Positions 1 through 13,740 of a stretch of DNA of 13,740 nucleotides are shown in pieces. The position numbers were made by a program, and so were the translations under genes. The notes below the pieces were generated by a model. That model saw nothing but the letters and a program-made list of their open reading frames with translations. It searched no databases and had not been told where the DNA came from. Position 1 is the first letter of the stretch; every line of letters begins with the position of its first letter. Origin of the DNA: a virus (Duplodnaviria > Heunggongvirae > Uroviricota > Caudoviricetes); IMG/VR virus record IMGVR_UViG_2695420746_000009, positions 1 to 13,740 of that record. The stretch is one strand, 5' to 3'.

Positions 1-84
1 ATCACGGTAATGATTAACAGCCCATGACAGGCAGACGATGATGCAGATAATCAGAGCGGAGATAATCGCGGTTAACCTGCTCAT
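1..84 (-). CDS. Rz: i-spanin Rz, N-terminal 28 codons only (gene runs off the window start)
   Basis: Reverse strand from 84 reads [28 protein letters not shown], near-identical to my recollection of the lambda Rz N-terminus (single TM anchor). Its ATG overlaps the endolysin stop (ATGA). Confidence 0.85.
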
Positions 85-581
85 TGCTGCCCCCACAAAC
101 AGACTTCACGCTCAATATCACGACGGGTCATCAGCCCTTTCCATTGCTTACCGCCAGCGTATGTCCAGCGACGTAGCTGGTCACATGCGCCTTTGATATA
201 GCCCTGGTTTATTTTGCGAAGAAGCGTCGATGTTCTGAAATTGCCAGCACCCACGTTGTAGACGAACGAGTAAAGAGCGCCGCGCGTTGTTTCCGGTATA
301 TCGACTTTGATGTACGGGTTAATTTGTCTGGCGACCGTGGCAAGGTCTTTATTCAGGAGGGCTTTGCATTCTGCTTCGGTATACGTTTTACCTAGCATGA
401 TGTCTTTTCCAGTGTGTCCGTAACATACAGTCCATACGCCAACAATATCTTTGTATGGTATGTAACTGACACCTTCCAGACCATCGTTACCACTTGGGCC
501 AGTGATGAGCATAGACGCTATGGCAATAGCCCCGCCACCAATAGCAGCTGTGACAGCTTTGCGTAATGATGACTGCATCAT
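81..581 (-). CDS. SAR endolysin (phage lysozyme, GH24, P21 R-like)
   Basis: 166 aa. N-terminal Gly/Ala-rich weakly hydrophobic segment [20 protein letters not shown] typical of a signal-anchor-release domain, followed by a T4-lysozyme-like catalytic region ([24 protein letters not shown]). Near-identical to my recollection of P21 R. Tandem ATG ATG start overlaps the holin stop. Confidence 0.9.
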
Positions 582-850
582 ATTTCCTTCGGTGCTCTCT
601 TCCCCAGCTCTCCAATAACCATCGCTGTAGCAGAAAGATTATTGGTATTAGTTTTATCCAATATGTCCTGCAATATCTTCGTGCGCTTCATCTGCTCGCG
701 TTTATTGAGCCGGTATGTAAGCACACCGAGGATAATGCTGAACGCGACACCGATAATGAAGCCCCAATCCTGCAATGACAGGCTGGCAAAGAACGCAGCA
801 AGACCAGCGCTACCATAAGATGCACTGCTGTATCGTTCATCCATCTTCAT
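578..850 (-). CDS. class II holin / pinholin with dual-start motif (holin and antiholin)
   Basis: 90 aa with two hydrophobic segments ([11 protein letters not shown] and [18 protein letters not shown]) and a charged C-terminus. Starts Met-Lys-Met (ATG AAG ATG), the classic dual-start arrangement. SD GAGGT lies 7 nt upstream. Sits immediately upstream of, and overlapping, the SAR endolysin. Confidence 0.75.
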
Positions 851-945
851 ATCTCTTACCTCGCAATAGTTGCTGAGGTTTCGGCTTGGAAACTATATGG
901 CGAAAATAACCCCTACCAAAAACGGCAGGGGAATATATTCTCCAG

Positions 946-2022
946 TTACTCAAATAACTTTTTCACTTCATCAACTGTCTGAAGATAACGTTCGCTCTCA
1001 ATCTCAATACCTATTGCCTGACGTCCTAACTTCAGCGCAGCTTTAATAGTTGAGCCTGATCCCATAAAGAAATCGGCAACGATATCTCCGGGGCGTGAAC
1101 TACTCTTTATAATATGTTCCATCATCGCTGCAGGTTTTTCACATGGGTGCTTGCCAGGATAATATTGCACAGGAGGAAACTCCCATACATCGGTATAAGG
1201 TACATCAGCAGTAACATGAAATGGACGGCGTAAATTTTCATACTGAGTCTTCAAATCATCATACTGCTTCTTTACTTCCTCATAATGCAATTTCAGATCG
1301 CTATAACGCTTTTCATGTTCTGAATAATCAACATTAAAAGGATATGGACACGGGACACCGAGTGAATCTGCCTTCCTGCGAAATAATTCGCATAGTTTAT
1401 TAAAATCAATTAATGATGGAAGCCGCCACTGCGAATAAGAAAACCAGTGTGAACACATCTGCTTTCCTGTCGCTGAATTAATGTCTGCGGCTGATATATC
1501 TAACTGACGGCGAGCCAGCGAAAAAGCATCAATTAGTGGAGAAAATATATTTTTTCTTAAATCTGCACATTTTGAAGCATAACCTGACTGACCTTTAGCA
1601 TAACCTGACGCGCCGTAATGCTCTGCAAATAATATTCTTTCAGTAGCAGGAAAATAAGCCCTTAAACTTTCTTTATGACAACCGCGCCACATACCACTGG
1701 GTTTAGCCCAAATGATATGGTTCAGAACATTGAAACGGTCGCGAGTTAATAATTCAATTTTTGACGCAAGGCGAGAGCCGGTAAACATATACAGGCTGCC
1801 ATTAGGGGCCAATATCCGCCAAAATTCTGCCAAAAATTCGTCAATCCACCCCAAAAAGTCAGCATCGCTATCCCACTGGTTATCCCATGCGTTAGCCTTT
1901 ACGCCGAAGTATGGTGGGTCTGTTGCAATCAAATTGACCGAGTTATCAGGGATGGTTTTGATAAATTGCAGAGAATCTGCGCAAACGAGTTGTGCGCCAT
2001 GAATATTAGTGGTTTTGAACAT
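946..2022 (-). CDS. DNA N6-adenine methyltransferase, beta class (orphan, phage late-region moron)
   Basis: Motif IV DPPY near the N-terminus (LIATDPPYFG) and motif I FxGxG near the C-terminus (DFFMGSGST), i.e. the beta-class order. A coiled-coil-like insert (KRYSDLKLHYEEVKKQYDDLKTQYENLRR) lies in the presumed target-recognition region. Start chosen at the ATG giving MFKTTNIHG; the ORF track extends to 2067. Neither start has a clear SD. Confidence 0.85.
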   Translation of the reverse strand: MFKTTNIHGAQLVCADSLQFIKTIPDNSVNLIATDPPYFGVKANAWDNQWDSDADFLGWIDEFLAEFWRILAPNGSLYMFTGSRLASKIELLTRDRFNVLNHIIWAKPSGMWRGCHKESLRAYFPATERILFAEHYGASGYAKGQSGYASKCADLRKNIFSPLIDAFSLARRQLDISAADINSATGKQMCSHWFSYSQWRLPSLIDFNKLCELFRRKADSLGVPCPYPFNVDYSEHEKRYSDLKLHYEEVKKQYDDLKTQYENLRRPFHVTADVPYTDVWEFPPVQYYPGKHPCEKPAAMMEHIIKSSSRPGDIVADFFMGSGSTIKAALKLGRQAIGIEIESERYLQTVDEVKKLFE

Positions 2023-2157
2023 AGCTATTATTTTTTTGCCTGGGTAAGCTAACCCAGCGATGCGCATCGCGGGTGGGCTTTAGGTTCAGCCTATAGCTCT
2101 GGCATGGGTTGACCGCAGGACAAGCTGCAACTTGTCCTGCGCCCACTTTTCAGGCAC

Positions 2158-2179
2158 AAAAAAACCGCCATAAAGGCGG
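2158..2179 (-). terminator. Intrinsic terminator for leftward transcription (GC hairpin plus U7)
   Basis: Plus strand CCGCC-ATAAA-GGCGG (2165-2179) preceded by a run of 7 A (2158-2164). On the minus strand this is a 5-bp all-GC stem followed by UUUUUUU. Confidence 0.6.
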
Positions 2180-2218
2180 CTTGTTGGCTATTGGGTACAA
2201 AAAACCCAACTTAACAAA

Positions 2219-2247
2219 ACAATAACTAAAAACCGTCATTTTGCCAA
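2219..2247 (-). promoter_or_regulatory. Candidate sigma70 promoter firing leftward into the terminator and late genes (pR'-like by position)
   Basis: Minus-strand TTGGCA (rc of 2242-2247), 17-nt spacer, TATTGT (rc of 2219-2224). The terminator lies about 30-55 nt downstream. No other promoter-like sequence is visible before the methyltransferase start. Confidence 0.35.
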
Positions 2248-2264
2248 GCTTTTTCGTTTTTGTG

Positions 2265-2286
2265 CTGTGCGACCATGGTCGCACAG
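2265..2286. repeat. Perfect 22-bp palindrome CTGTGCGACCATGGTCGCACAG; copy 1 of dispersed TGCGACC-NN-GGTCGCA motif (candidate centromere-like site)
   Basis: Read directly. Intergenic, about 20 bp upstream of the candidate late promoter -35. Same core as the copies at 6573-6590 and 9017-9034. Confidence 0.5.
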
Positions 2287-2289
2287 TTT

Positions 2290-2517
2290 TTAGAAAGTTG
2301 CCTGCTTATATTCATCGGTCAAAGAATATCGACCAGACCCACTACGCTTTGCAACCCCAAAACAGATCATCTGTTCGATGATAAATTCAACGGCAGCCTG
2401 ACTCAAAAAACAGGCTTCGCTTAACTCTTTCAAGGAAATGCGTGGATATCCACGCATAACACATTCCACACTCAGGGCCGCTTCGGTCATATTTCCACGA
2501 ATTTCATTAATATTCAT
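2290..2517 (-). CDS. Hypothetical small protein with probable winged-helix/HTH segment
   Basis: 75 aa. SD GAGAGG 4-5 nt upstream of the ATG. Helix-turn-helix-like stretch ISLKELSEACFLSQAAVEFIIEQM followed by a Gly-rich wing-like segment. Second gene of a two-gene minus-strand operon, ending at the terminator. Confidence 0.55.
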   Translation of the reverse strand: MNINEIRGNMTEAALSVECVMRGYPRISLKELSEACFLSQAAVEFIIEQMICFGVAKRSGSGRYSLTDEYKQATF

Positions 2518-2530
2518 AACGCCTCTCTAA

Positions 2531-2752
2531 TCAATCTTGAAACTGGAAATCAACATCAGCCATAAAGCGGTTCAACTCAGCCAGTTTTGGCCCCATAGTC
2601 CCAATTAAGCGGCCAGCCAGTCGGTCTGTCAGGTTGGTACTGTTGAAACCATATTCCTTTTCGAAACGTTCAACCTTCTGCCACAACTCATACAATTCGT
2701 TAGCTATCTCCGCAACGTCGCCGCGCATTTTTTCGTTACCTTGATAATTCAT
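2531..2752 (-). CDS. Hypothetical small acidic protein
   Basis: 73 aa from the internal ATG (MNYQGNEK...), which has SD GAGGA 4 nt upstream. The ORF-track start at 2770 has no usable SD. Gap of 13 nt to the downstream HTH gene. Confidence 0.5.
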   Translation of the reverse strand: MNYQGNEKMRGDVAEIANELYELWQKVERFEKEYGFNSTNLTDRLAGRLIGTMGPKLAELNRFMADVDFQFQD

Positions 2753-2839
2753 AATATCCTCGAAATTCATATAGTTAGTGGGTTATCCCCCTCAACAACA
2801 CGAACTGTAACTCTGCCAAAAGAACACATCCAGTGTTAT

Positions 2840-2857
2840 TTTCACTTTTTAGTGAAA
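2840..2857. promoter_or_regulatory. Inverted repeat TTTCAC-N6-GTGAAA in the divergent promoter region (candidate operator for TA autoregulation)
   Basis: Read directly, about 60 bp upstream of the toxin start, between two divergent transcription units. Confidence 0.4.
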
Positions 2858-2915
2858 TTTTATATTTGCTTTGTTTTCTCGTTTTGGTGTATTTTGCGCG
2901 TTAGGAGGCTATAAT

Positions 2916-3227
2916 ATGTTTAACGTGATAACCCACCCTGCAGCACTGGATGAACTGCTTGAACTACCAGACGATCTGCGAGGTCGCATGACCAGGCTAA
3001 TTGAACGACTGGAGAAAGAGGGAAACAAACTTAAGATGCCCCATAGCCGTGTAATAGGCGGAGGACTCTTTGAACTAAGAGTAGGGGATAAAAACATCGC
3101 AAGAACGCTATACGCCTACGCGACTGGTAACGAAATTTATCTATTGCATGCATTTGTAAAAAAGACACAGAAAACACCAGTAAAGGCTATAGAAATCGCC
3201 AGAACTCGCCTGAAGGAGATGAACTGA
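2916..3227 (+). CDS. Type II toxin, RelE/ParE superfamily, HigB/Gp49-like (addiction module killer protein)
   Basis: 103 aa from the ATG with SD AGGAGG 7 nt upstream. Family-typical motifs LFELR, LLHAF and KKTQKTP. Stop overlaps the start of the downstream HTH gene by 1 nt. The ORF-track start at 2871 is over-extended. Confidence 0.8.
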   Translation: MFNVITHPAALDELLELPDDLRGRMTRLIERLEKEGNKLKMPHSRVIGGGLFELRVGDKNIARTLYAYATGNEIYLLHAFVKKTQKTPVKAIEIARTRLKEMN

Positions 3228-3514
3228 TGAAAGCAAAAGGCATCCCGTTTAACGAAGTAAAGGAAAAACTACTCAACACTCCAGAAGCTATCAAAGGATA
3301 TGAAGAGGCCGATAAAGAACTGGAGATGGTCGAAATGTTATACGAAATGAGGGAAAGAGCAGGTTTAACGAAGTCAGCTCTGGCAGAACGAATGGGATTG
3401 CGCCCGTCCGCCATCAGCCGCCTGGAAAGCAATCCTTTAGGGGCAAGCATGAAAACTTTATCAAAATATGCCCAAGCATGTGGCGCAACAATTAATATTA
3501 ATGCCGTCTATTGA
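3227..3514 (+). CDS. HTH (XRE-family) antitoxin, HigA-like antidote protein
   Basis: 95 aa. Classic HTH LTKSALAERMGLRPSAISRLE. Translationally coupled to the upstream toxin in toxin-first (HigBA-type) order. Confidence 0.8.
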   Translation: MKAKGIPFNEVKEKLLNTPEAIKGYEEADKELEMVEMLYEMRERAGLTKSALAERMGLRPSAISRLESNPLGASMKTLSKYAQACGATININAVY

Positions 3515-3531
3515 TTAATCACTTTTCACTA

Positions 3532-3551
3532 CCCCGTCCAGAAGGGCGGGG
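3532..3551. terminator. Hairpin between convergent genes (possible bidirectional terminator)
   Basis: CCCCGTCC-AGAA-GGGCGGGG, an 8-bp stem with one G-U pair. Lies between the antitoxin stop (3514) and the stop of the convergent ORF (3558). Flanking U-tracts are poor. Confidence 0.4.
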
Positions 3552-3557
3552 TGTGTA

Positions 3558-3776
3558 TCAATGATGTAAACACTCCACAGCAATCGCTTGTTGGCAATTC
3601 TGAGCAATCTCCCGCGACATACTAACAAGCCGTGAAATCTCGCCAAGATGCAAGCTAGCTTCGGGAGAAGCCAGAGCAACGCTAACCAGATCCAAAACGG
3701 CGTCGATGTCTTTTAGGTTTGATCCGAGTTCTTCAAGAGTTGATACAGATGCTTCAGTCATTGAATCTAATACCAT
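3558..3776 (-). CDS. Hypothetical small acidic protein; candidate LexA-regulated gene
   Basis: 72 aa, rich in D/E. No recognisable SD in front of the ATG. A consensus-like LexA box lies 23 nt upstream. Coding status uncertain. Confidence 0.4.
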   Translation of the reverse strand: MVLDSMTEASVSTLEELGSNLKDIDAVLDLVSVALASPEASLHLGEISRLVSMSREIAQNCQQAIAVECLHH

Positions 3777-3798
3777 TTAATTAAAAAAGGTTATTTGA

Positions 3799-3818
3799 TA
3801 CTGTATAAAATTACAGGG
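3799..3818. promoter_or_regulatory. Candidate LexA (SOS) box
   Basis: TACTGTATAAAATTACAGGG: CTGT-N8-ACAG with an AT-rich spacer, 16 of 20 matches to TACTGTATATATATACAGTA. Overlaps a possible -10 (TACAGT on the minus strand) for the 3558-3776 ORF. It is the only CTGT-N8-ACAG found in the intergenic regions inspected. Confidence 0.55.
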
Positions 3819-4017
3819 TAAAACTCAAATTTTATAGCCAACTTTCAATGGATTAACAGGGTTAATAGCTTTGTAGTCCGATACTTATGTTCTCTTCCTA
3901 CGCCTCACTCAACCACCTACAGAAGCCCATCATCACCATAAGAAAAACTCTTTTCGCTTCGTTTTCTCATCATTTCAAAAACTATGCCTTTTTGTTTATT
4001 TATCATTCCGTGACCAG

Positions 4018-4344
4018 TCACACTTTGAGCACAAGTTTCAGCCTCGTAGTTGTAAGGTGACATGAGCCTTCACCATCAAAAATACATTCTGAAACAGGCA
4101 TTTTCTGACCACATCGCGGGCAAGTAGTAGATAGCTGCTTCTGCAGCTCCTTATAGTTTTTCCTGATCAGCAGACCGATGACTTCATTCTCTGAATATGG
4201 AACTCGTCCCGGTCTACGCAATACACAAATTTCCCCCAACATACGTAGCTCGTCAGGTTCCAGAATCCAGTCCCGTCTTGATGTGCCTTCCTTCTTCAAC
4301 CGTTCCCTGCGTCTCCTTTGCCGTTCTGCAGCTGTCAGCGCCAT
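4018..4344 (-). CDS. Hypothetical protein with arginine-rich N-terminus and C-terminal Cys cluster
   Basis: 108 aa. SD AGGAGG 4 nt upstream. N-terminus AERQRRRRERLKK; Cys cluster CPRCG...C...C. Last gene of the minus-strand operon. Confidence 0.6.
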   Translation of the reverse strand: MALTAAERQRRRRERLKKEGTSRRDWILEPDELRMLGEICVLRRPGRVPYSENEVIGLLIRKNYKELQKQLSTTCPRCGQKMPVSECIFDGEGSCHLTTTRLKLVLKV

Positions 4345-4359
4345 AAATCCTCCTGAAAA

Positions 4360-5034
4360 TTACTTAACCCAATTAACTACACCGCCAGCGGCCACAACCG
4401 CTTTTTCACAGTCACGCTCATATCTCAAAGGTTGAAATACACCATCAATAAAATATTTATCTCCACCACATGCTGCAGGAAGTGAAACAGAAAACTGAAT
4501 ATGACCATCCGGAGTTACCGGAGAGTTGCCAGCCTCATACGCTACCCTTATCCAGTGCATAAGCATTTCTGTACTTACACATCCACAATCAACATCAATT
4601 TTGTCATGCTGCTGTTCCAGCCATTGCTCAAAAGTTAACTTGTAAGTTTGGCTTATAGGTTTGGCTTCCAGTTCTGCTATGTGATTTTTGGCTGATTCCA
4701 ACTCAATCGACAATTTTTCCAACTGCTCTTTATGCTTCTTGTATTCCTGATATGCGTGCCAAGACTGACCTTTGCGCACACTATCCGTGATATCAGTAAT
4801 CTGTTCTGGTGTTAGCGTGGTCAGTGGCTGTGCTGGGAAAATCAGCACTTTCCCGGAATCCCAATCAAAACCAGCGTGAATTGACTGAACCTCAACTGAA
4901 GGTGTTGAACCAATGCTGCCAGGCGAATGAACAACGATCGTTACATCCATATCGCGACGATCGCTGTGGTTGTTGGACAAAATACGATTCAACAAAATAC
5001 GATTCACCAACTCAGAAAATTTAGAAAATTTCAT
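4360..5034 (-). CDS. Hypothetical protein with central coiled-coil
   Basis: 224 aa. ATG overlaps the upstream gene stop (ATGA). Coiled-coil-like region KKHKEQLEKLSIELESAKNHIAELEAK. Contains an in-frame 15-bp tandem duplication near the 5' end. Confidence 0.65.
   Translation of the reverse strand: MKFSKFSELVNRILLNRILSNNHSDRRDMDVTIVVHSPGSIGSTPSVEVQSIHAGFDWDSGKVLIFPAQPLTTLTPEQITDITDSVRKGQSWHAYQEYKKHKEQLEKLSIELESAKNHIAELEAKPISQTYKLTFEQWLEQQHDKIDVDCGCVSTEMLMHWIRVAYEAGNSPVTPDGHIQFSVSLPAACGGDKYFIDGVFQPLRYERDCEKAVVAAGGVVNWVK
4977..5006. repeat. Perfect tandem duplication of 15 bp (ACAAAATACGATTCA x2), in frame inside CDS 4360-5034
   Basis: Read directly. Encodes the repeated NRIL(L/S) unit in the N-terminus. 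Confidence 0.8.
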
Positions 5035-5321
5035 GCTGATTCACCTTTCTCTGCTCTCTCCTGTCGGAACATCACTATCATCAGGTCGCCTTTTGTCGCT
5101 ATCTTGGCTGTTGTGCCTGGCTCAATGCGGCTAAGTTCAAATGCGTCATAGAACGCCTCCAACGCTTTCTGGCGTTTTTCCTGTTTGCGGCGCTTTCCCC
5201 ACTGCTTTAGAAAAACAGAGGCCGCCCACTTCCCCGCACTGAACATGATGTAAAACCAACCGAGAAGTGCCAGACCGGTATTTAGGGCCGTATCGATCGT
5301 TATCGTGGTGTCGATATTCAC
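5031..5321 (-). CDS. Small membrane protein (one predicted TM segment), GTG start
   Basis: 96 aa from GTG at 5321, which is preceded by SD AGGAGG at 7-nt spacing and overlaps the upstream stop (TAGTG). TM-like segment GLALLGWFYIMFSAGKWAASVFL followed by a basic stretch. The ORF-track start at 5399 would overlap the upstream gene by 79 nt. Confidence 0.55.
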   Translation of the reverse strand: MNIDTTITIDTALNTGLALLGWFYIMFSAGKWAASVFLKQWGKRRKQEKRQKALEAFYDAFELSRIEPGTTAKIATKGDLMIVMFRQERAEKGESA

Positions 5322-5740
5322 TACGCCACCTCCTGAAAATTTCCCTGATAAAACGCCAACACACGCTGCATAACTTCGCTCTTCCGACAATCGTGACAAA
5401 TCATGTTCAAGCGCCTGTCGTAACGACGTATTTCTCCATCAGGTAATGACCAGATAAGGTCAGGATCAACAACTACCGATTTCTTCGGCTTTACTCTTGA
5501 TAGCTTTTTGCGGGCGTTTTGCCAGTCCTTGCGCGCTTGTGCAGACAGAAATATCCCGGAGCCAGAGATATACAAATCACCACTGGTGGCAAGCTCTCTG
5601 GATAAACGATTAACAGCACATCGGCTAATACTAATTTCATCTGCCAGTTGCCTAACCGTTCCTCGCCCATTCAGGCGCACGAGTTCCACAATTTGTTTCT
5701 TCAGTTCTTCACGCTGTTCTGGTGTAAAAACTTTTGCCAT
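5321..5740 (-). CDS. HTH-containing DNA-binding protein, function unknown
   Basis: 139 aa. SD GGAGA 6 nt upstream. ATG overlaps the exonuclease stop (TAATG). HTH-like stretch VRQLADEISISRCAVNRLSREL. Confidence 0.7.
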   Translation of the reverse strand: MAKVFTPEQREELKKQIVELVRLNGRGTVRQLADEISISRCAVNRLSRELATSGDLYISGSGIFLSAQARKDWQNARKKLSRVKPKKSVVVDPDLIWSLPDGEIRRYDRRLNMICHDCRKSEVMQRVLAFYQGNFQEVA

Positions 5741-6339
5741 TACGATTCTCCTTTCCCTTTTATGAGACGGGAGAAAATTGCGGATACATACTTAGCCTGA
5801 TGAATAGCATCAGCTAGGGCATGGTGTCGTTCGCCATCAAATGGCATATCTTTTTTAGAATTGAAACCAATAAACTGACCAAGATTAACGATTGTTCGAA
5901 CATCCTGATCATTAAAATATTCCCACGGACAGGCTAAGCCAACGCGCTCATAAGCACCGCGTAAAATTACATTGTCGAATGTTGCTCCATTTCCCCATAC
6001 TTTCAATTTTTTTAAATTACATGCATGGCAAGTAATAAAGTGTGATAATTCAAAAAGTGCATCCTTAATATCAAGGGCATCATTAGTACAAATTGCGGCT
6101 CTGGCTTCCTTGCTCTGTTTCAACCACCATAAAATGGTATCACCATCGGCGACACCACCATTCAACATCGAGCTTCTGAGATTCACTGGCACATAAAAAG
6201 TAGGACCTAATTCCTCACTTTCTGGAGAAAAAAACACTGCCCCGATAGAAACAATTGGAGCACATGTGTTAGTACCCATTGTTTCAAGGTCAATCATTAC
6301 ATCAGACCGTTTCCTGTCGTAAATAATCTGATTAGTCAC
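5740..6339 (-). CDS. DEDDh-family 3'-5' exonuclease (DnaQ-like fold)
   Basis: 199 aa. Exo I motif MIDLETMG (D-x-E), Exo II GNGATFDNVIL, Exo III HHALADAIHQAKY (H-x4-D with Tyr). GTG start with SD GAGGAG 8 nt upstream. Confidence 0.75.
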   Translation of the reverse strand: MTNQIIYDRKRSDVMIDLETMGTNTCAPIVSIGAVFFSPESEELGPTFYVPVNLRSSMLNGGVADGDTILWWLKQSKEARAAICTNDALDIKDALFELSHFITCHACNLKKLKVWGNGATFDNVILRGAYERVGLACPWEYFNDQDVRTIVNLGQFIGFNSKKDMPFDGERHHALADAIHQAKYVSAIFSRLIKGKGES

Positions 6340-6362
6340 GAATAATTCTCCTCAACGTTTAT

Positions 6363-6566
6363 CTATACCCAAATTTTCTGTTGATATGTTCTGGATGGTT
6401 TTGGCGTTCTTTCTGATTCAGGTAAATGAACATAAACGCAATATCCATCACCTAAAAAATCAGAACGAACAACCAGAACTTTCTTACCACGCCGCCGATA
6501 AGTATCTGAAAGACGCTCTGCTTCATCATGCGTCATCGGCCCCTGCTTAAATGGCGTTATTTTCAT
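6363..6566 (-). CDS. Hypothetical small basic protein
   Basis: 67 aa from the ATG (MKITPFKQ...). The 18-bp palindrome lies 6 nt upstream of the start; no clear SD. The ORF-track start at 6590 is a GTG inside the palindrome. Confidence 0.5.
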   Translation of the reverse strand: MKITPFKQGPMTHDEAERLSDTYRRRGKKVLVVRSDFLGDGYCVYVHLPESERTPKPSRTYQQKIWV

Positions 6567-6867
6567 TTTCTTGTGCGACCGCGGTCGCACCCTCGCTGAT
6601 TTCCAAGTAACGCTTAATCCAAAGATTTTCTATATGCTTATTACCTGGCTGATTTGATAAATACCAATCGGCAATTACAGACTGCTTATTACTATCTGGT
6701 CGTGTCCTGTAACCACAAGTTGGACACCAGATAACATATTCATTTCTTACCCCCGAATACCTTAATTCTGGCTTCGACGGTTTCCTGAACATAACTTGTT
6801 TACAAAGGCAGAATGGCACTTCCTGCCCGATGGCGTTTGATGATTTCACTGCGCTTCTCCGCCGCAT
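6547..6867 (-). CDS. Hypothetical protein with Cys pairs (CxC ... CPxCG), possible zinc ribbon
   Basis: 106 aa as given in the ORF track; start uncertain (no SD at either candidate ATG, and it overlaps the upstream gene by 68 nt if full length). Cys pattern CLC ... CPTCG. Confidence 0.4.
   Translation of the reverse strand: MRRRSAVKSSNAIGQEVPFCLCKQVMFRKPSKPELRYSGVRNEYVIWCPTCGYRTRPDSNKQSVIADWYLSNQPGNKHIENLWIKRYLEISEGATAVAQENENNAI
6573..6590. repeat. Perfect 18-bp palindrome GTGCGACCGCGGTCGCAC; copy 2 of TGCGACC-NN-GGTCGCA motif
   Basis: Read directly. Lies within the 3' end of ORF 6547-6867 (encoding ATAVAQ) and immediately upstream of the start of the 6363-6566 gene. Confidence 0.5.
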
Positions 6868-7510
6868 TTAATAATGCGGTTCGATTTAAGCTCAGACATC
6901 GCGACTTAATTAAAAGCCAGCGTTCTTTATAATCTTGTCTCCAGCTATCAATAGATATATTCAGTAGAAAACTCAGATGCCTGTCCTGTTCTCTCTCATC
7001 AACTGCCTCAGCACACGTAAGTTCTGATTTAACCTGCTGTGCCGCGTAATAAATCAATTTCCGCATGGCTTTTTTCGTGGAGGCCTTCATTTTTTTAAAG
7101 CCGCCCCCAGAATGAGCAACCAGAAAATCAAGCCATAACCACTGACAAACAATCACATCATTGTTGTAGTCAGGCTTGCATCCGTAGCAATAATAAAGCC
7201 AGGCTGATTCCTCGTTATTCAACTGACCAATAGCCCTGCGCCAGCTGGCGCTCTGAAAATCAATATCAGTGAGCAACATTGATGATTGTTTAAATGTTTT
7301 CCCTTGGTGGAATCTAACCGACTCAGCGGGAACGGACACTTCGTATGAGTTATCATCCCCCACACTGATTGACCGGACTGGTTTATTGTTAAACCGTCCT
7401 GATCTACCGAGACGCATCTGCTCAAGCTGGACCTCCAGAATGCCACGCTGGCGATAATGAACATCAGCCAATGCCGTAGAGACGCAGCTGCGTATATACT
7501 CAAGCTCCAC
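6800..7510 (-). CDS. Hypothetical protein; positional candidate for a late-gene antiterminator (Q-like), unverified
   Basis: 236 aa. GTG start with SD AGGAGA at 9-nt spacing, overlapping the cro-like stop by 11 nt. First gene after the cro-like gene. I cannot confirm Q-family membership by eye. Confidence 0.55.
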   Translation of the reverse strand: MELEYIRSCVSTALADVHYRQRGILEVQLEQMRLGRSGRFNNKPVRSISVGDDNSYEVSVPAESVRFHQGKTFKQSSMLLTDIDFQSASWRRAIGQLNNEESAWLYYCYGCKPDYNNDVIVCQWLWLDFLVAHSGGGFKKMKASTKKAMRKLIYYAAQQVKSELTCAEAVDEREQDRHLSFLLNISIDSWRQDYKERWLLIKSRCLSLNRTALLNAAEKRSEIIKRHRAGSAILPL

Positions 7511-7721
7511 GCTTACGACTCTCCTTAATCGACTGCTTTACCCGCCGAGTTGTAAAGTCACTCTTCAGCTTGTAAGCAGTACGAACTTCAATATCGCTTT
7601 GCCGCAATGAAGGAATCTCTCCAGCGGTTAACCATTGGTAAACAGCTCCGGGTGTTACACCTACCCCTGCCGCTGCTTTTTCAACACTGCCAAAGTGGCG
7701 AATAAGTTCTTCTGGTTTCAT
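7500..7721 (-). CDS. Cro-like HTH regulator
   Basis: 73 aa from the ATG giving MKPEELIRHF. HTH VGVTPGAVYQWLTAGEIP resembles the lambda Cro GVYQSAINKAI region. Divergent from the CI-like gene across an operator-bearing intergenic region. TATAAT lies 7 nt upstream of the ATG, so the mRNA may be leaderless. Confidence 0.7.
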   Translation of the reverse strand: MKPEELIRHFGSVEKAAAGVGVTPGAVYQWLTAGEIPSLRQSDIEVRTAYKLKSDFTTRRVKQSIKESRKRGA

Positions 7722-7749
7722 GTTGTTATTATAAACAATAAATAACAAT

Positions 7750-7789
7750 TAAAGCCAGCTATAATAAATAAATTTTATAGCCAGCTATA
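7750..7789. promoter_or_regulatory. Two operator-like 14-bp sites (TAAAGCCAGCTATA and TATAGCCAGCTATA) between the divergent cro-like and cI-like genes
   Basis: The 12-mer AGCCAGCTATAA occurs twice, 26 bp apart. The second site is a near-perfect dyad (TATAGC-CA-GCTATA). The location is the expected OR-like switch region. Confidence 0.5.
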
Positions 7790-7812
7790 AGAAGATCATT
7801 TATGATTACAGT

Positions 7813-8409
7813 ATGAAAACACGAGGCGAACGACTGAAAGCACGCCGTTTAGAGATGAAGCTGACGTTGCGAGAAGTTGCTGAGGCTGTCGATATCTCTA
7901 TAGCAGGCGTCCAAAACTTAGAACGTGGCGACGTAATGCCGTCACTGGAGATAGGTATTGCCCTGGCTAAGTGCTTACGCAAGCCAGTGCATTGGGTGCT
8001 ATATGGGACAGAATATGACCCTGATCGCATTCCTGTTATTGGCACAACTGAAAGTGGGCCTGATGAAGAGTGGAAGCCGGGACAGGTTCCAAATACTGAG
8101 CGATTCCTGCCATTCATCAGCCAGCGCAATACTGTGTATGCGTTAACTATCAGCAATCTTACGCAGGGAAACTATCAGCCAGGCGATTTTCTCCTGGTCG
8201 ATTCTGCGCTGGAACTGGTCCCCGGCGAGGATGTTCTGGTTCGTGATACTGCAGGAAATATCACTATCCAGCGCCTAGCCCGTTTTGATGATGAAAATTA
8301 CTATCTGGATGGAACAAACTCACAACGCGCCATCTTCAGGAAAAGCGATCTTGAATTTGTTCACCAAATAGTCGGAACGATCAAATCATTCATGGTTGAG
8401 GGTAGATGA
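7813..8409 (+). CDS. CI-like prophage repressor (N-terminal XRE HTH, C-terminal CI/LexA-like domain)
   Basis: 198 aa. HTH LTLREVAEAVDISIAGVQNLERG. C-terminal region resembles lambda CI around PGDF (QPGDFLLVDS ... VGTIKS). I could not locate a canonical G-D-S-M catalytic Ser context by eye, so autocleavage competence is uncertain. Confidence 0.8.
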   Translation: MKTRGERLKARRLEMKLTLREVAEAVDISIAGVQNLERGDVMPSLEIGIALAKCLRKPVHWVLYGTEYDPDRIPVIGTTESGPDEEWKPGQVPNTERFLPFISQRNTVYALTISNLTQGNYQPGDFLLVDSALELVPGEDVLVRDTAGNITIQRLARFDDENYYLDGTNSQRAIFRKSDLEFVHQIVGTIKSFMVEGR

Positions 8410-8510
8410 CTTAATACGGGGTTTATTGTTTGCTGTAAATCTGGTTTAATGCAGGGCATATGTTCTGTGGGTTGACTCAGGTTACAGCAGCAGAAAAAAG
8501 ACGAAAAAAA

Positions 8511-8539
8511 ACCCGAGTCGGCAAACTCGGGTCCTTTTC
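8511..8539. terminator. Bidirectional intrinsic terminator between the cI-like and repA-like genes
   Basis: ACCCGAGT-CGGCAA-ACTCGGGT, an 8-bp stem. The plus-strand U-tract is weak (CCUUUUC); the minus-strand U-tract is strong (UUUUUUUUCGUCUUUUUUC). Confidence 0.5.
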
Positions 8540-8654
8540 AGGAAGCAGCCACAGTAACGCGACGGATTCCGTCAATTCAAGATGCGTTTATTGTGGCTGC
8601 TCCTGCGGATTTTTTCAACCCGAAAAAACATAATTCGCATGGAATGGCTAAAAA

Positions 8655-11600
8655 ATGACATTAAACGATTTCTATGCGGATCGCTTTGGCAGCGATCCGT
8701 TCTCGCTAATTGAAGCAGCACGGGATGAACTAACCGAGCTGGCACAGATGGCTGGTATCAACTGGCCTGCCTGTTCCGACAACATCCAACTCAACCCTCG
8801 CGGGGGAGTTGAGCGTTACTCTTCATACAATAAAACATCTCCAGAAGCTCTCGAAAAGAGCCTGAAAGGACGCGTAGAAATTTACTCCCGGCTGGAACAC
8901 AGCAAAGGGATTGATTACCCGTTCATTAACTTCGTCCATAAAGGCAGCGATGCTGGCTCATGGAGCGGTTTCTCCTTCCTGTTTTCTGAATATCGCCGTG
9001 AGCAACAACGGAATAATGCGACCGTGGTCGCACAACCGGAAGAAGAACGGGAAAGAATAGAACGTCAGGCCGAAGCACGTCGTCGCCGTGAAGAACAAAA
9101 ACGAATTAATGACCTGAAAAACAACCAAATGGACCATGAACGTTTGCTGGGATGGCTGGCATTCCACAGCGCGTGGGAACATGCTCCGGCTGAAGACGGC
9201 TCATGGCCATATGCGATTAAAAAAGGTATTCGTGACGTTTTTAGTTCATGTGATGTGCGTCGCGTGACCAGTCACGACAGTGCGAAATGGAGCCGGGGGC
9301 CAACCACATATATGGCTATCCCTCTGGCTCACCTGGACGGTCGTTACGATGGTCGTATTGTGGGTTGGCAGCGAATCGACAAACAAGGTGGGAAATACCA
9401 GACCAGCGCAGTAACCAGCGGCGATTTCGTCGGTGCCTGCTTTGTTATCGGTGAGCTGAAAGGGGCGCAAAACATCGCTGTTACAGAAGGTTTTGCTACT
9501 GGTGCATCCATCTGGCTTGCCACGAAAAAAGATAAACGCTTTGACGCTGTGGTTGTCGCTGTATCCGCTAACAACATGGTTCATGTTGTGGAACAACTGG
9601 TAAACATGTACCCAGCGGCAAAAATCACCTGCGCACTGGATAATGACCGGAAATCTGCCACAGAAGGAAAAGGGAATACCGGCCTGCGGACTGGCTATGA
9701 AATCTTATCGAAATTCAACGATGTCCGCTGCGTCTATCCAACTTTTGAAGACGATCCGCAAATGGAGTGCAGTGACTTCAACGACCTGCACAAACTACGT
9801 GGACTTCGTGAAACCGCACGTCAACTATTTACAACAGCAAACCGCCTGAAAACCGGTACTGATTTGCTATCTCTGACGCTCAACCGCCTGAAGACAATTA
9901 AGCGGGATAACCGTCGTACTTTTGCCAAAGAGCTGCTGAGAGCGGTGGATATTGGCATGCTAACCTGTCCAGTTCCTAACAGTCCGTCAGATTTATTTAA
10001 CATGTTCTGCATCGTTCTGCGTGAAATGGGACTGGAAAATATCTATCGCGCTACGGTAAAAGACCACATTGCCCGTCGCCTGAATAAAAAGTGCCGTATT
10101 GCCCAGGCTCCGCGCTCTTTCAGCGAACGCATAACTGATCCCAATAAACGCCCTCAACATATCACCTATAAGCGTTTTGAAACTTCGGTAATGACCGATG
10201 ATGTCCTGAAGTACGTGCAATCACTACAAGGGATAGTCATCGTCCGTGCTGGTATGGGTTCCGGCAAATCTACAGGATTGTTACGACCATTAATGCATAG
10301 CTCAGAACGTGGTATCTCTGTTGCTCACCGTGTCTCCCTTATTGGTGGCCTGTGGGAAATGATGACAGAAGGAAAAGGTGTAAAAGCCGATATCCTGCAC
10401 TATCAGGACCCTGGCTATCAGGAAATGGCTCCATACGCCAGTAAACTGACCATCTGCATAAACTCGATTGTCAAAAACTGCTGGCAACCGTTGATGCGCC
10501 AGCACGACTATTTTGGCTTTGACGAGGCCACACAAGGGCTACGTGCCGTTCTTTCCGGTCGGGCTATGGAAAACCCGGTGGCTGTATTCAATACGCTAAT
10601 TGACGCGCTGGCCAGAACGGAACAACACCCAATCATGGTGGATGCTGATGCGAACGATCTGCTGGTTGACCTAGCTGAACTGGCTATGAAACGCCGTGAA
10701 GAACTAGGTTTACCGGCATGGCTGCAGATCCACGTAATTGAATTACCTGTTGATGTTCGCAACCGCGAAACAGGTGAGCCAATCCGGGTTTTTTATACAG
10801 AAAAAGATCGCATCATGACCGAGGTGGTGAAAGCTGTATCGGATGGCGAAAAAATCATGTTGGCCACCGACAGCTCCACCTTTGCAGAAGATGTGACAGC
10901 CACCCTGAGAATGCATTTTCCTGGTAAGAAATTTCTGTGTGTAAACCAGAAAAACAAACCAGAGCCAGAAGTTGAAGCATTTACCAATCAACCGAAAAAG
11001 ATGGTCAAAAAATACGACGGCCTGATTTATAGCCCGTCTATTTCATCCGGCGTGTCGATTGAGCAAAAACATTTTGACCGTCATTTCGGCATGTTCTGTG
11101 GTGAAGTTGTACCCAGCGACGCAGTGCAAATGCTACGCCGCGACCGTACAGCAAAAGAATTTATTATCGGCTTTGATAAAGCTCGTGCAAAACGTGAAAC
11201 TGACCCGCAAAAAATAGAACGAGCATTCGCCCAGGCATTGCTTGCTACCGCAGGTATGAACGGTGAACTGACGGATGTTGTTTTCGATGGCGACCGTATA
11301 TCAATGGGGGTGGCCAATACCGACTTTACCAGGATGAAAATTAAAGCAGCCGCAATTGAAGCGACTGCGCGTAACGACTACGCCAGCAACATGATCTGCA
11401 TCATGCACAGCGACGGTTATAAGGTATCGCCGCTGGCCACCGATTATGCTGCGAATGATATCGGTAAAGATCTGCGTAAAGAAGCGCGGGATATTGTGTG
11501 GGAACAGACACTGGATCTGCACCTCAATACAGAAACTCCACAAGAATCAGAGCGTGAAGAACTGCTAAAAAAACGCGCGCTGACGCTTGAAGAACAGGCA

Positions 11601-12698
11601 AAACTTGTCCGCTGGGATATTGAAAACGAACTGAAACTACCGGTTGAAGAAGGCACGCTGAAATTCTATTTCGATGGTGCTCGAGACAAAGTTCGCCGCT
11701 ATGAAACAATGCTTTTAGATGAGGTAACAGCTCGTCGTTACGACCGGGAAGAAGCAGCCATCAATTTTACCTACGCATACCGTCAGGCGGGACAGTGGCA
11801 ATATTTTGTAGTGACCGCGATGACTCGCGAGCAGGCTGATGATGTCTTTAAAACTAAATTCCCTGGAATAATCGATCACAAGGTAAAAGCTACTCCTACT
11901 GTTGAAGTCGGGGCGCGCGGTTTCTATGCGCTTAAATCAGCAACTCTCCGGCAGTACTTTATCGACTGCGGTATCAACCCTGAGACTATGACCGGCGAGG
12001 CGACTCAGGAGCGTCTCAAATTTGCTCGAGATAACCTCATGACAGCCGAACGCCGTGACCTGTTGAATAACGTTCTGCACATTGGTGGTTTTATGACGCC
12101 AAAAGGGAAGCCTAAAGTGCCGGAAGCGTTGTTTAAAAACATTTGCGACTCTCTTGGCCTTAAAACAGGTAAACGTCGCGGCAGAGACGGCGATAAGCGT
12201 CCAACCTTGCGTTTTGTTGAGCCTGAATCAGCGGCATTTATGCTGGATATTCTTGCTCAGCGTCAGAAAGATGGCCTAACCCTGAAAACGCGTAAAGCCG
12301 AGAAGACCGCCATCGAAATGGATCGCGATTTGGATCTCAATATATATATGGATGATAAAACGCGATCCACAAACGAGCAGGTTCAAAACGCCCCTCATTC
12401 AGTAATTTCTGAGGCTTTGGCTGTGTTGCCAGTGGTTGTACCTGAGTCCTGGGCGATGAGTGCGCTTTCCGGTGAGGAGCTGGCCACTATGTCATCATGG
12501 TCATCAGCCAGCATAGCTATGACGTTTGCATCTCTGTACCTCACAGAGTTCATGGATCACTTATCCAGCAATGAACTGCGGCGGTTACGTGAATACATTA
12601 CCGGGAATAGCTGGATTTGCCCCTATATTTCCAGACATCTGTTATCACTTAACCCATTACAAGCCCGCTGCCGCAGATATTCCCGTGGCGAGCGATAA
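8655..12698 (+). CDS. Large multidomain replication initiator (primase-helicase, N15 RepA-like); 3' end disrupted by IS2
   Basis: 1347 codons as an ORF. Toprim-like motifs ([12 protein letters not shown] and CALDNDR) around aa 280-330, Walker A GMGSGKST around aa 535, Walker B-like FGFDEAT, then a roughly 700-aa C-terminal region. Native sequence ends at 12611 (1319 codons); codons 1320-1347 are read from the IS2 terminal inverted repeat. Weak SD. Confidence 0.8.
9017..9034. repeat. Palindrome TGCGACC-GT-GGTCGCA; copy 3 of the motif, inside the repA-like coding sequence
   Basis: Read directly. Encodes ATVVAQ in a charged linker ([21 protein letters not shown]), in the same codon phase as copy 2 (ATAVAQ). 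Confidence 0.5.
12320..12368. other. Candidate origin-like element inside the 3' part of the repA-like gene
   Basis: 8-bp inverted repeats GGATCGCG / CGCGATCC flank ATTTGGATCTCAATATATATATGGATGATAAAA, which includes an (AT)5 run and three GATC sites within 49 bp. Confidence 0.3.
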
Positions 12699-13528
12699 CC
12701 CAGCGCACTATGCGGATGCCATTCGTTATAATGCTCGAACGCCTCTGCAAGGTTCTTTGCTGCCGTTAACCCGTCTGGTTTGGGCATGATACTGATGTAG
12801 TCACGCTTTATCGTTTTCACGAAGCTCTCTGCTATTCCGTTACTCTCCGGACTCCGCACCGCCGTGTTCTTCGGTTCAAGTCCCAACATCCGGGCGAACT
12901 GGCGTGTTTCATTAGCCCGGTAGCATGAACCATTATCCGTCAGCCACTCCACTGGAGACGACGGAAGATCGTTGCCGAAGCGGCGTTCCACCGCTCCCAG
13001 CATGACGTCCTGTACTGTTTCACTGTTGAAGCCGCCGGTAGTCACCGCCCAGTGCAGTGCCTCACGATCACAGCAGTCCAGCGCGAACGTGACACGCAGT
13101 CTCTCTCCGTTATCACAGCAGAACTCGAACCCGTCAGAGCACCATCGCTGATTGCTTTCTTTCACGGCCACTCTGCCTGTATGTGCCCGTTTCGATGGCG
13201 GTACAGCAGGTTTTCGCTCAAGCAACAGCGCATTCTGGCGCATGATCCGGTAAACACGTTTGGCATTGATCGCAGGCATACCATCAAGTTCTGCCTGTCT
13301 GCGAAGCAGCGCCCATACCCGACGATAACCATACGTGGGCAGCTCTCCGATAACATGGTGTATACGGAGAAGCACATCCGTATCATCAGTGTGACGACTG
13401 CGGCGGCCATCCATCCAGTCATCGGTTCGTCTGAGAATGACGTGCAACTGCGCACGCGACACCCGGAGACAACGGCTGACTAAGCTTACTCCCCATCCCC
13501 GGGCAATAAGGGCGCGTGCGCTATCCAC
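12623..13528 (-). CDS. insD: IS2 transposase OrfB (InsD), normally expressed as an OrfAB fusion by -1 frameshift
   Basis: 301 aa beginning [23 protein letters not shown] and ending SDNRCLEI, matching IS2 InsD from memory. DDE-type integrase core. Confidence 0.9.
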
Positions 13529-13740
13529 TTTTTTGCCCGTCCATATTCAACGGCTTCTTTGAGGAGTTCATTTTCCATCGTTTTCTTGCCGAGCAGGCGC
13601 TGGAGTTCTTTAATCTGCTTCATGGCGGCAGCAAGTTCAGAGGCAGGAACAACCTGTTCTCCGGCGGCGACAGCAGTAAGACTTCCTTCCTGGTATTGCT
13701 TACGCCAGAGAAATAACTGGCTGGCTGCTACACCATGTTG
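13486..13740 (-). CDS. insC: IS2 OrfA (InsC), C-terminal part (5' end beyond the window)
   Basis: Reverse strand reads ...[20 protein letters not shown] ... [24 protein letters not shown], then a stop. Overlaps the insD start region, which contains the slippery AAAAAAG. Confidence 0.85.

Follow-up and report, generated by a model that had tools for sequence, protein, structure and literature searches.

An N15-type immunity switch with three operators and putative leaderless divergent cro and cB promoters in a linear plasmid-prophage of Escherichia coli

Gene content and setting of the immunity region

The DNA analysed here is a stretch of 13,740 bp, referred to throughout as the window, which on sequence comparison is that of an N15-like telomere phage, a linear plasmid-prophage of Escherichia coli. 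Linear plasmid-prophages of E. coli and Shigella match positions 1-12612 with 99% identity. Over the switch region (7300-8500) the identity is 99% to YDC107_1 (an Escherichia phage, Ravinvirus), 97% to the phage PhiR46_1 and 76% to the immB region of N15, for which the source is GenBank U45242.1 (Lobocka et al. 1996, as cited in PMC4997575). To judge from its gene content the region is immB, the primary immunity region, with cro and Q on the minus strand and cB and repA on the plus strand. Pfam matches and synteny reveal a helix-turn-helix repressor gene, cB, and a P22_Cro-type cro gene that are divergent, as in the gene order of N15-type immB regions, with Q lying 3' of cro and repA 3' of cB, an arrangement common to N15, phiKO2 and YDC107_1. 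The features of this interval are as follows.

6800 to 7510, minus strand: Q antiterminator gene (Pfam Phage_antiter_Q, E=1e-82), overlapping the 3' end of cro, in the order found in N15 immB
7500 to 7721, minus strand: cro, lytic repressor gene, 73 aa (Pfam P22_Cro, E=1.7e-22), start codon ATG at 7721
7813 to 8409, plus strand: cB, prophage repressor gene (the cI equivalent), 198 aa (Pfam HTH_3, E=3e-11; weak Peptidase_S24 match)
8504 to 8539, no strand assigned: terminator hairpin in the cB-repA interval, from a terminator scan
8655 to 12698, plus strand: repA, primase/helicase replication protein gene (Pfam Toprim_3 / Herpes_ori_bp)

Relatives of repA are annotated as belonging to the CyRepA1 family, and the terminator aligns with annotated putative terminators of N15 and with a terminator described as 'putative bidirectional' in phiKO2. 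A scan of the whole window against Rfam at the gathering threshold gave no match, so that the region is unexplained by any known RNA family, and a scan of genome contigs with the single CB protein gave only two matches, both to unrelated Firmicutes helix-turn-helix proteins.

Several other observations were made on the window and its relatives. An IS2 element (IS3 family) occupies 12613-13740, with its transposase ORF running from 13528 to 12623 on the minus strand, and similarity to the related plasmid-prophages stops at 12612. The insertion, at about 12612, lies in the last nine or so codons of repA and has altered the 3' end of the gene; repA of the relatives stops at the equivalent of 12638 and the ORF in the window continues into IS2 to 12698. 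A two-gene cassette (2871-3227 and 3227-3514) lies on the plus strand, opposite to its neighbours, and is annotated in YDC107_1 as a hypothetical protein followed by an HTH protein; the cassette (2871-3514) resembles a toxin-antitoxin pair. The cB locus is present in two inverted copies in several IMG/VR contigs and in the YDC107_1 record (CP025712.1 among these), as would be expected from assembly through the telomere of a hairpin-ended linear plasmid.

The operators

The initial annotation of this DNA drew attention to a 12-mer, AGCCAGCTATAA, between cro and cB, and this does occur exactly twice in the 13,740 bp (7753-7764 and 7779-7790), with no match in any of 200 dinucleotide-preserving shuffles. 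The two 14-bp quasi-palindromes that were described with it, TAAAGCCAGCTATA (7750-7763) and TATAGCCAGCTATA (7776-7789), are likewise present, 26 bp apart from start to start, and a search with the 14-mer pattern allowing three mismatches or fewer gave 5 matches against 0.9 expected. The proposal that the repeats are operators holds in so far as they coincide with OR2 and OR3 at the positions annotated in N15, but there are three sites rather than two and the functional unit is one of 16 bp, of TTATA-N6-TATAA type, rather than 14 bp; the 12-mer is, on this alignment, the common core of OR2 and OR3. The span originally reported, 7750-7812, takes in both repeats but leaves OR1 (7726-7741) and the cro -10 hexamer just outside, and the OL sites upstream of repA had also escaped notice. 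The sites, for none of which a strand is assigned, are as follows.

7726 to 7741: OR1, TTATTATAAACAATAA, positional homologue of N15 OR1 TTATTATAATCAATAA, with one central base different
7749 to 7764: OR2, TTAAAGCCAGCTATAA, containing the first copy of the 12-mer, positional homologue of N15 OR2 TTAAAGCTAGGTATAA
7775 to 7790: OR3, TTATAGCCAGCTATAA, containing the second copy of the 12-mer, identical to OR3 of N15 and phiKO2; putative Cro site and CB autorepression site
8423 to 8438: probable OL2, TTATTGTTTGCTGTAA, aligning with N15 OL2 TTATTGCTGACTATAA, T-A-N10-T-A kept
8446 to 8461: probable OL1, TTAATGCAGGGCATAT, diverged, aligning with N15 OL1 TTAATCCGATCTATAC and phiKO2 OL1 TTAATGCGGTCTATAA, T-A-N10-T-A kept

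The three operators between cro and cB all show the T-A-N10-T-A / TTATA-N6-TATAA pattern, OR1 having 2 mismatches to TTATA-N6-TATAA, and in alignment they coincide in every column with the operators annotated in N15, the start-to-start spacing being 23 bp from OR1 to OR2 and 26 bp from OR2 to OR3 in both phages. When the window was aligned with N15 and a further eight N15-like phages, the two repeats fell exactly on OR2 and OR3, and the operator cores are kept across the whole family. OR3 is an exact match, at 7775-7790, to the N15 OR3 oligonucleotide of PMC6649833. It overlaps the putative cB promoter, the -35 hexamer of which lies inside it, and the cro -10 hexamer, TATAAT, lies inside OR1. 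The OL2 and OL1 homologues sit 3' of cB, ahead of the conserved terminator and repA, and the right half-sites of both have diverged from those of N15.

OR2 and OR3 of the window differ from each other at one position only, base pair 4, in the left half-site. The 12-mer is the core of a longer 26-nt tandem direct repeat (7737-7762 and 7763-7788, 85% identical), which spans OR2 and OR3 together with their upstream spacers, and the equivalent 26-nt units of N15 are, by a hand count, only about 73% alike. This suggests, from the sequences compared, that OR2 may have been duplicated or converted in the lineage of the window. The promoter/start modules of the two genes, at 7713-7735 and 7799-7821, are also in mirror arrangement and 78% alike, with TTTATAATAACAACATGAAACCA on the cro strand and TTTATGATTACAGTATGAAAACA on the cB strand.

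The repressor proteins and published binding data

Residues 1-63 of the window Cro align to N15 Cro (PDB 2HIN/6ON0) with E=2e-32 and about 87% identity, and the two proteins (PDB 6ON0 for N15 Cro) have the same recognition helix. CB is 78% identical to N15 CB, and its C-terminal Peptidase_S24 match falls below the Pfam cut-off (21.3 against 23.3 bits), which agrees with the published absence of the RecA-cleavage site and of the Ser/Lys active residues from the CB proteins of N15 and phiKO2 (PMC4997575).

Five 16-bp CB operators, OR1-3 and OL1-2, are annotated in the N15 immB record (GenBank U45242.1) and all five are bound by N15 CB (PMC4997575). Of the three OR sites the CB protein of phiKO2 binds OR1 most strongly and the other two more weakly; OL1, OL2 and the operators of N15 are bound by it as well (PMC4997575). 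The Cro proteins are more selective in that OR3 is bound with a KD of 90 nM by N15 Cro and 44 nM by phiKO2 Cro, and at OR1 and OR2 N15 Cro showed no binding and phiKO2 Cro very weak binding, with a KD of about 1-2 uM (PMC6649833). The DNA in the N15 Cro crystals was a symmetric consensus site, one central base pair away from OR3 (PMC6649833). The binding of CB and Cro that is proposed for the window operators is taken, by analogy, from these experiments with N15 and phiKO2, and since the CB helix differs at 2 residues and the OL sites have diverged, the binding of CB to every site in the window is an assumption.

Geometry of the putative leaderless divergent promoters

On the cB side 6 nt (TACAGT) separate the hexamer TATGAT (7801-7806) from the ATG at 7813, and on the minus strand another 6 nt (AACAAC) separate TATAAT (7733 to 7728) from the cro ATG at 7721. 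No Shine-Dalgarno-like motif is present at either gene, and one is present at 13 of the 17 other annotated genes of the window. Both genes of the window combine an AUG start with a -10 hexamer 6 nt away and no Shine-Dalgarno sequence, a combination of leaderless type. The hexamers at 6-7 nt and the lack of Shine-Dalgarno sequences at the two genes had been noted in the initial annotation, which went on to suggest leaderless mRNAs, and that suggestion has gained support from the geometry of the whole family and from 5' RACE in PY54, which bear on this phage by homology. When the 91-bp intergenic region was replaced by composition-matched shuffles, a -10 hexamer of at least 5/6 at 6-7 nt on both sides was found in 0.2% of trials. 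The promoter elements are listed below.

7728 to 7733, minus strand: -10 hexamer TATAAT of a putative leaderless cro promoter, homologue of PY54 CATAAT, annotated in N15 as the -10 of PR2
7778 to 7783, plus strand: -35 hexamer TAGCCA of a putative leaderless cB promoter, from a consensus scan (TAGCCA-17-TATGAT, 7778 to 7806)
7801 to 7806, plus strand: -10 hexamer TATGAT of the putative leaderless cB promoter, with the 6-nt spacer TACAGT to ATG 7813, from the same consensus scan

The TAGCCA-17-TATGAT hexamers, with their 17-bp spacing, are also found in N15, where they are annotated, and in PY54. The proximal cro promoter has no convincing -35 hexamer (the best candidate matching at 2/6 positions), the consensus scan gave no call for it, and the TG of an extended -10 is one position off. 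Among 27 N15-like sequences both -10 hexamers are invariant and the hexamer-to-ATG spacers of 6-7 nt are the most variable columns, with a 1-nt indel, a pattern that is expected of an untranscribed discriminator and not of a ribosome-binding site.

A wider family set was drawn from phage, plasmid and IMG/VR records and comprised 49 distinct regions between cro and cB, the identity of CB ranging from 100% to about 30%. On the cB side a -10-like hexamer (A at position 2, T at position 6) stands 6-7 nt before the ATG in 48 of the 49, in the form TATGAT, TATTAT or TATCAT, and the ATG that it adjoins is the start codon of the MK(T/K)RG motif; on the cro side such a hexamer (TATAAT, CATAAT, TATCAT or TAACAT) stands 6-7 nt before the ATG in about 45. 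All 49 have no usable Shine-Dalgarno sequence and use ATG to start both cro and cB. In the distant N15-like Orbaceae plasmid CP133961.1 the intergenic region (568-700) is 133 bp long and the geometry is absent on both sides; this plasmid-prophage may have leadered mRNAs.

Experimental evidence comes from PY54, for which 5' RACE gave one mRNA species each for cI and cro, both leaderless and beginning with AUG (PMC4488713). Spontaneous promoter-down mutations identified CATAAT as the -10 of PY54 cro (PMC4488713), and this hexamer lies 6 nt from the cro ATG. The text of the PY54 paper leaves unspecified which cI AUG corresponds to the RACE 5' end (PMC4488713), and the phiKO2 paper makes no mention of leaderless mRNA or start sites (PMC4997575). 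With the -10 hexamers placed 6 nt before both ATGs, transcription should start at the A of the AUG, giving leaderless mRNAs, and by analogy with PY54 the cro and cB mRNAs of the window very probably begin at their own start codons. In minimum-free-energy folds of the first 50 nt of each predicted mRNA the first 12-15 nt are unpaired, with z-scores near 0; this is weak evidence and shows only that the 5' ends of the cro and cB mRNAs are not sequestered.

Start codons of cro and cB

The geometry described above bears on the annotation of both genes. In the YDC107_1 and PhiR46_1 records cro is called from a TTG at 7748, which gives a product of 82 aa. That call is probably wrong, the start being ATG 7721 instead: relatives differ in having a spacer of either 6 or 7 nt, so that the reading frame 5' of ATG 7721 is not kept, and N15 Cro as crystallised begins MKPEEL. 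For cB/cI, the start in the records of N15, phiKO2 and PY54 is the ATG inside TATGAT, 12 nt upstream, and the deposited PY54 cI start is accordingly 12 nt 5' of the conserved MKKRG ATG. In the window the corresponding ATG, at 7802, is out of frame, so the start of cB must be ATG 7813 (MKTRGERLK). ATG 7802 opens a 4-codon ORF, ATG ATT ACA GTA TGA, the TGA of which overlaps the cB ATG (ATGA). Among 30 distinct upstream sequences from the family an upstream ATG is in frame in 17, only out of frame in 4 and missing in 9; TATGAT followed by a 7-nt spacer automatically puts such an ATG in frame. It is therefore probable that public records misplace the starts of both cro and cB/cI.

Alternative transcripts

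The main rival reading accepts the operators as described and holds that the main cro and cB mRNAs are leadered, coming from promoters further upstream in the OR region, so that the proximal hexamers would be minor promoters or by-products of AT-rich operator half-sites. A cB transcript of this kind would have a leader of about 40 nt and would come from a plus-strand hexamer in OR2:

7760 to 7765, plus strand: TATAAT in the right half of OR2, candidate -10 of a leadered cB promoter (N15 putative promoter annotation; invariant in N15-like phages)

The candidate -10 for a leadered cro transcript is TAAAAT on the minus strand (7777 to 7772), and translation would have to proceed on an AU-rich leader with no Shine-Dalgarno sequence, in an S1-dependent manner. 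A number of results can be cited for such promoters. Fusions to lux in phiKO2 indicated that cB has two promoters, of which one lies near the start of cro and the other borders OR3, and that three promoters for cro overlap operators (PMC4997575), several putative promoters are annotated on each strand in N15 (U45242.1), and in PY54 the strongest cI-directed promoter activity was located at the 5' end of cro (PMC4488713); the invariance of the plus-strand TATAAT in OR2 points the same way. Yet RACE in PY54 gave only one species per gene, and that leaderless (PMC4488713). Conservation of the TATAAT of OR1 might reflect no more than its place in an operator half-site, but TATGAT is invariant too and belongs to no operator, and the distance from hexamer to ATG is held at 6-7 nt throughout the family though the sequence of the spacer drifts. 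A leadered cB transcript would, moreover, carry the out-of-frame ATG 7802 in competition with the real start. That leadered mRNAs should be the main products is thus considered improbable, although the further promoters found in phiKO2 mean that leadered transcripts may coexist with leaderless ones.

It is a good deal less probable still that the cB transcript starts at A7802, in which case the mini-ORF AUG AUU ACA GUA UGA would be translated first and CB made by termination-reinitiation. The overlap of the mini-ORF stop with ATG 7813 in the window, the fact that the annotated cB/cI starts of N15, phiKO2 and PY54 are this same upstream ATG, and its in-frame occurrence in 17 of the 30 distinct family upstream regions would all suit such an arrangement. 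However, there is no acceptable -10 at 5-8 nt 5' of 7802, the nearest hexamer being TATAAG (7786-7791), in which the final T is absent and which is 10 nt away. An in-frame ATG arises automatically from TATGAT and a 7-nt spacer, and the 13 regions of the 30 in which it is missing (9) or only out of frame (4) are to be set against 29 of 30 in which a hexamer stands 6-7 nt from the MK(T/K)RG ATG.

That the repeats are something other than repressor operators, whether a product of chance or iterons, partition sites or protelomerase sites, is extremely improbable, given that the exact 12-mer was absent from all shuffles, that the sites match the positions of experimentally bound operators in N15 and phiKO2, with OR3 identical, and that the operator cores are conserved family-wide; iterons, partition sites and chance were considered as the source of the repeats and rejected on this positional homology.

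Comparison with known switches

Among the closest known switches, that of N15 shares with the window the gene order and orientation, 16-bp operators at spacings of 23 and 26 bp with OR3 identical and OR1 1 nt off, TATAAT in OR1 beside the cro ATG, TAGCCA-17-TATGAT beside the cB ATG, the positions of two OL sites (probable ones in the window) with terminator and repA downstream, and the Cro recognition helix. It differs in CB, where the 78% identity includes a change at the start of the recognition helix (Ile-Ala in the window for Leu-Pro), in the right half of OR2 (GCTATAA in the window, not GGTATAA), in the right halves of OL1 and OL2, which have diverged, and in the hexamer-ATG spacers, which are 6 nt in the window and not 7 nt; the ATG from which cB is called in N15 thereby falls out of frame. 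The switch of phiKO2 (Hammerl et al. 2016, PMC4997575) has the same five-operator layout and an identical OR3 but differs in OR1 (TTATTATATTCGATAA) and OR2 (TTAAAGCCAGGTATAA); its promoters are known only by prediction and lux fusions (PMC4997575).

PY54 (Hammerl et al. 2015, PMC4488713) is more distant: its repressor proteins share no more than about 33-36% identity with their counterparts in the window, and its intergenic region is 116 bp long as against 91 bp. It nevertheless has divergent cI and cro genes with hexamers 6-7 nt before the ATGs and no Shine-Dalgarno sequence, and has the OR3 core TATAGCCAGCTATA and TAGCCA-17-TATGAT in common with the window. Unlike the window it has a single operator (OR3), in which the outermost G/C, in place of T/A, sets the specificity of Cro, and its CI binds other, dissimilar sites (PMC4488713).

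The general plan is also that of the lambda switch, in which cI and cro are divergent with three operators between them and Cro prefers OR3 and shuts off cI. The lambda operators, however, are 17 bp long and of other sequence, lambda CI and Cro each bind all three of them in opposite order of preference, with CI at OR2 activating PRM and Cro repressing its own synthesis, and the repressor of the window has, unlike that of lambda, no recognisable RecA-cleavage residues. The lambda cro mRNA has a leader and a Shine-Dalgarno sequence, whereas in the window the proximal promoter lies too close to cro to leave space for a leader. The fold of N15-type Cro is all-alpha and unrelated to that of lambda Cro (PMC6649833). 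Measured strictly against lambda OR, then, the region departs in operator length and sequence and in the restriction of N15 and phiKO2 Cro to OR3; it works like a lambda switch but is not a member of the lambda immunity group.

A model for the switch

The region is likely to be an N15-type switch in which three OR operators are combined with leaderless divergent promoters for cro and cB. It is as such an ordinary member of a known system, since the design has been shown by experiment in a related phage and both the operators and the leaderless arrangement have already been described for N15, phiKO2 and PY54. By analogy with these phages, CB would occupy OR1 in the lysogen, and because OR1 holds the cro -10 TATAAT, CB bound there would shut off cro and Q. 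At higher levels of CB, OR2 and OR3 would also be filled, eventually repressing cB itself, and CB on OL1 and OL2 would limit repA and so hold down plasmid copy number. Upon inactivation of CB, Cro would be made and would bind OR3, and because OR3 holds the cB -35 TAGCCA, this would block repressor synthesis. The leaderless cro and cB mRNAs would be translated with no Shine-Dalgarno sequence, like the lambda cI mRNA from PRM, which is leaderless (PMC4488713). The overlaps of OR1 with the cro -10 and of OR3 with the cB -35 can be read from the sequence itself, and from these together with the related phages we infer the protein binding and the transcription start sites.

A possible lineage-specific immunity variant and its significance

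The changes in OR2 and in the CB helix are the only lineage-specific twist, and there is little else that is new. In every member examined of the lineage to which the window belongs (the YDC107_1 / PhiR46_1 type, from E. coli and Shigella) helix 3 of CB reads SIAGVQNLERG, whereas in all other N15-like phages examined it reads SLPGVQNLERG, the altered positions lying within residues 28-31. In all of these members, too, the right half of OR2 matches that of OR3 exactly and the OL1 and OL2 sites have diverged. With the right half of OR3, the OR2 of the window may be bound better by Cro than N15 OR2 is by N15 Cro. The association of OR2, CB helix and OL changes comes from a single lineage and is therefore suggestive only, and that this lineage represents a distinct immunity variant of the N15 switch is a possibility put forward tentatively and judged rather unlikely. 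If the changes have functional consequences, OR2 could become a second site for Cro beside OR3, which would introduce an autoregulation or cooperativity of Cro that is absent in phiKO2 and PY54, and the specificity of CB could be shifted, which would make these phages heteroimmune to N15 and phiKO2. The OR2, CB-helix and OL changes together suggest a testable case of immunity divergence.

Two further points are of practical value. The start codons given for cro and cB/cI in public records look wrong, and a putatively doubly leaderless divergent promoter pair is conserved across the enterobacterial telomere phages, which makes the family a convenient natural system for the study of leaderless translation.
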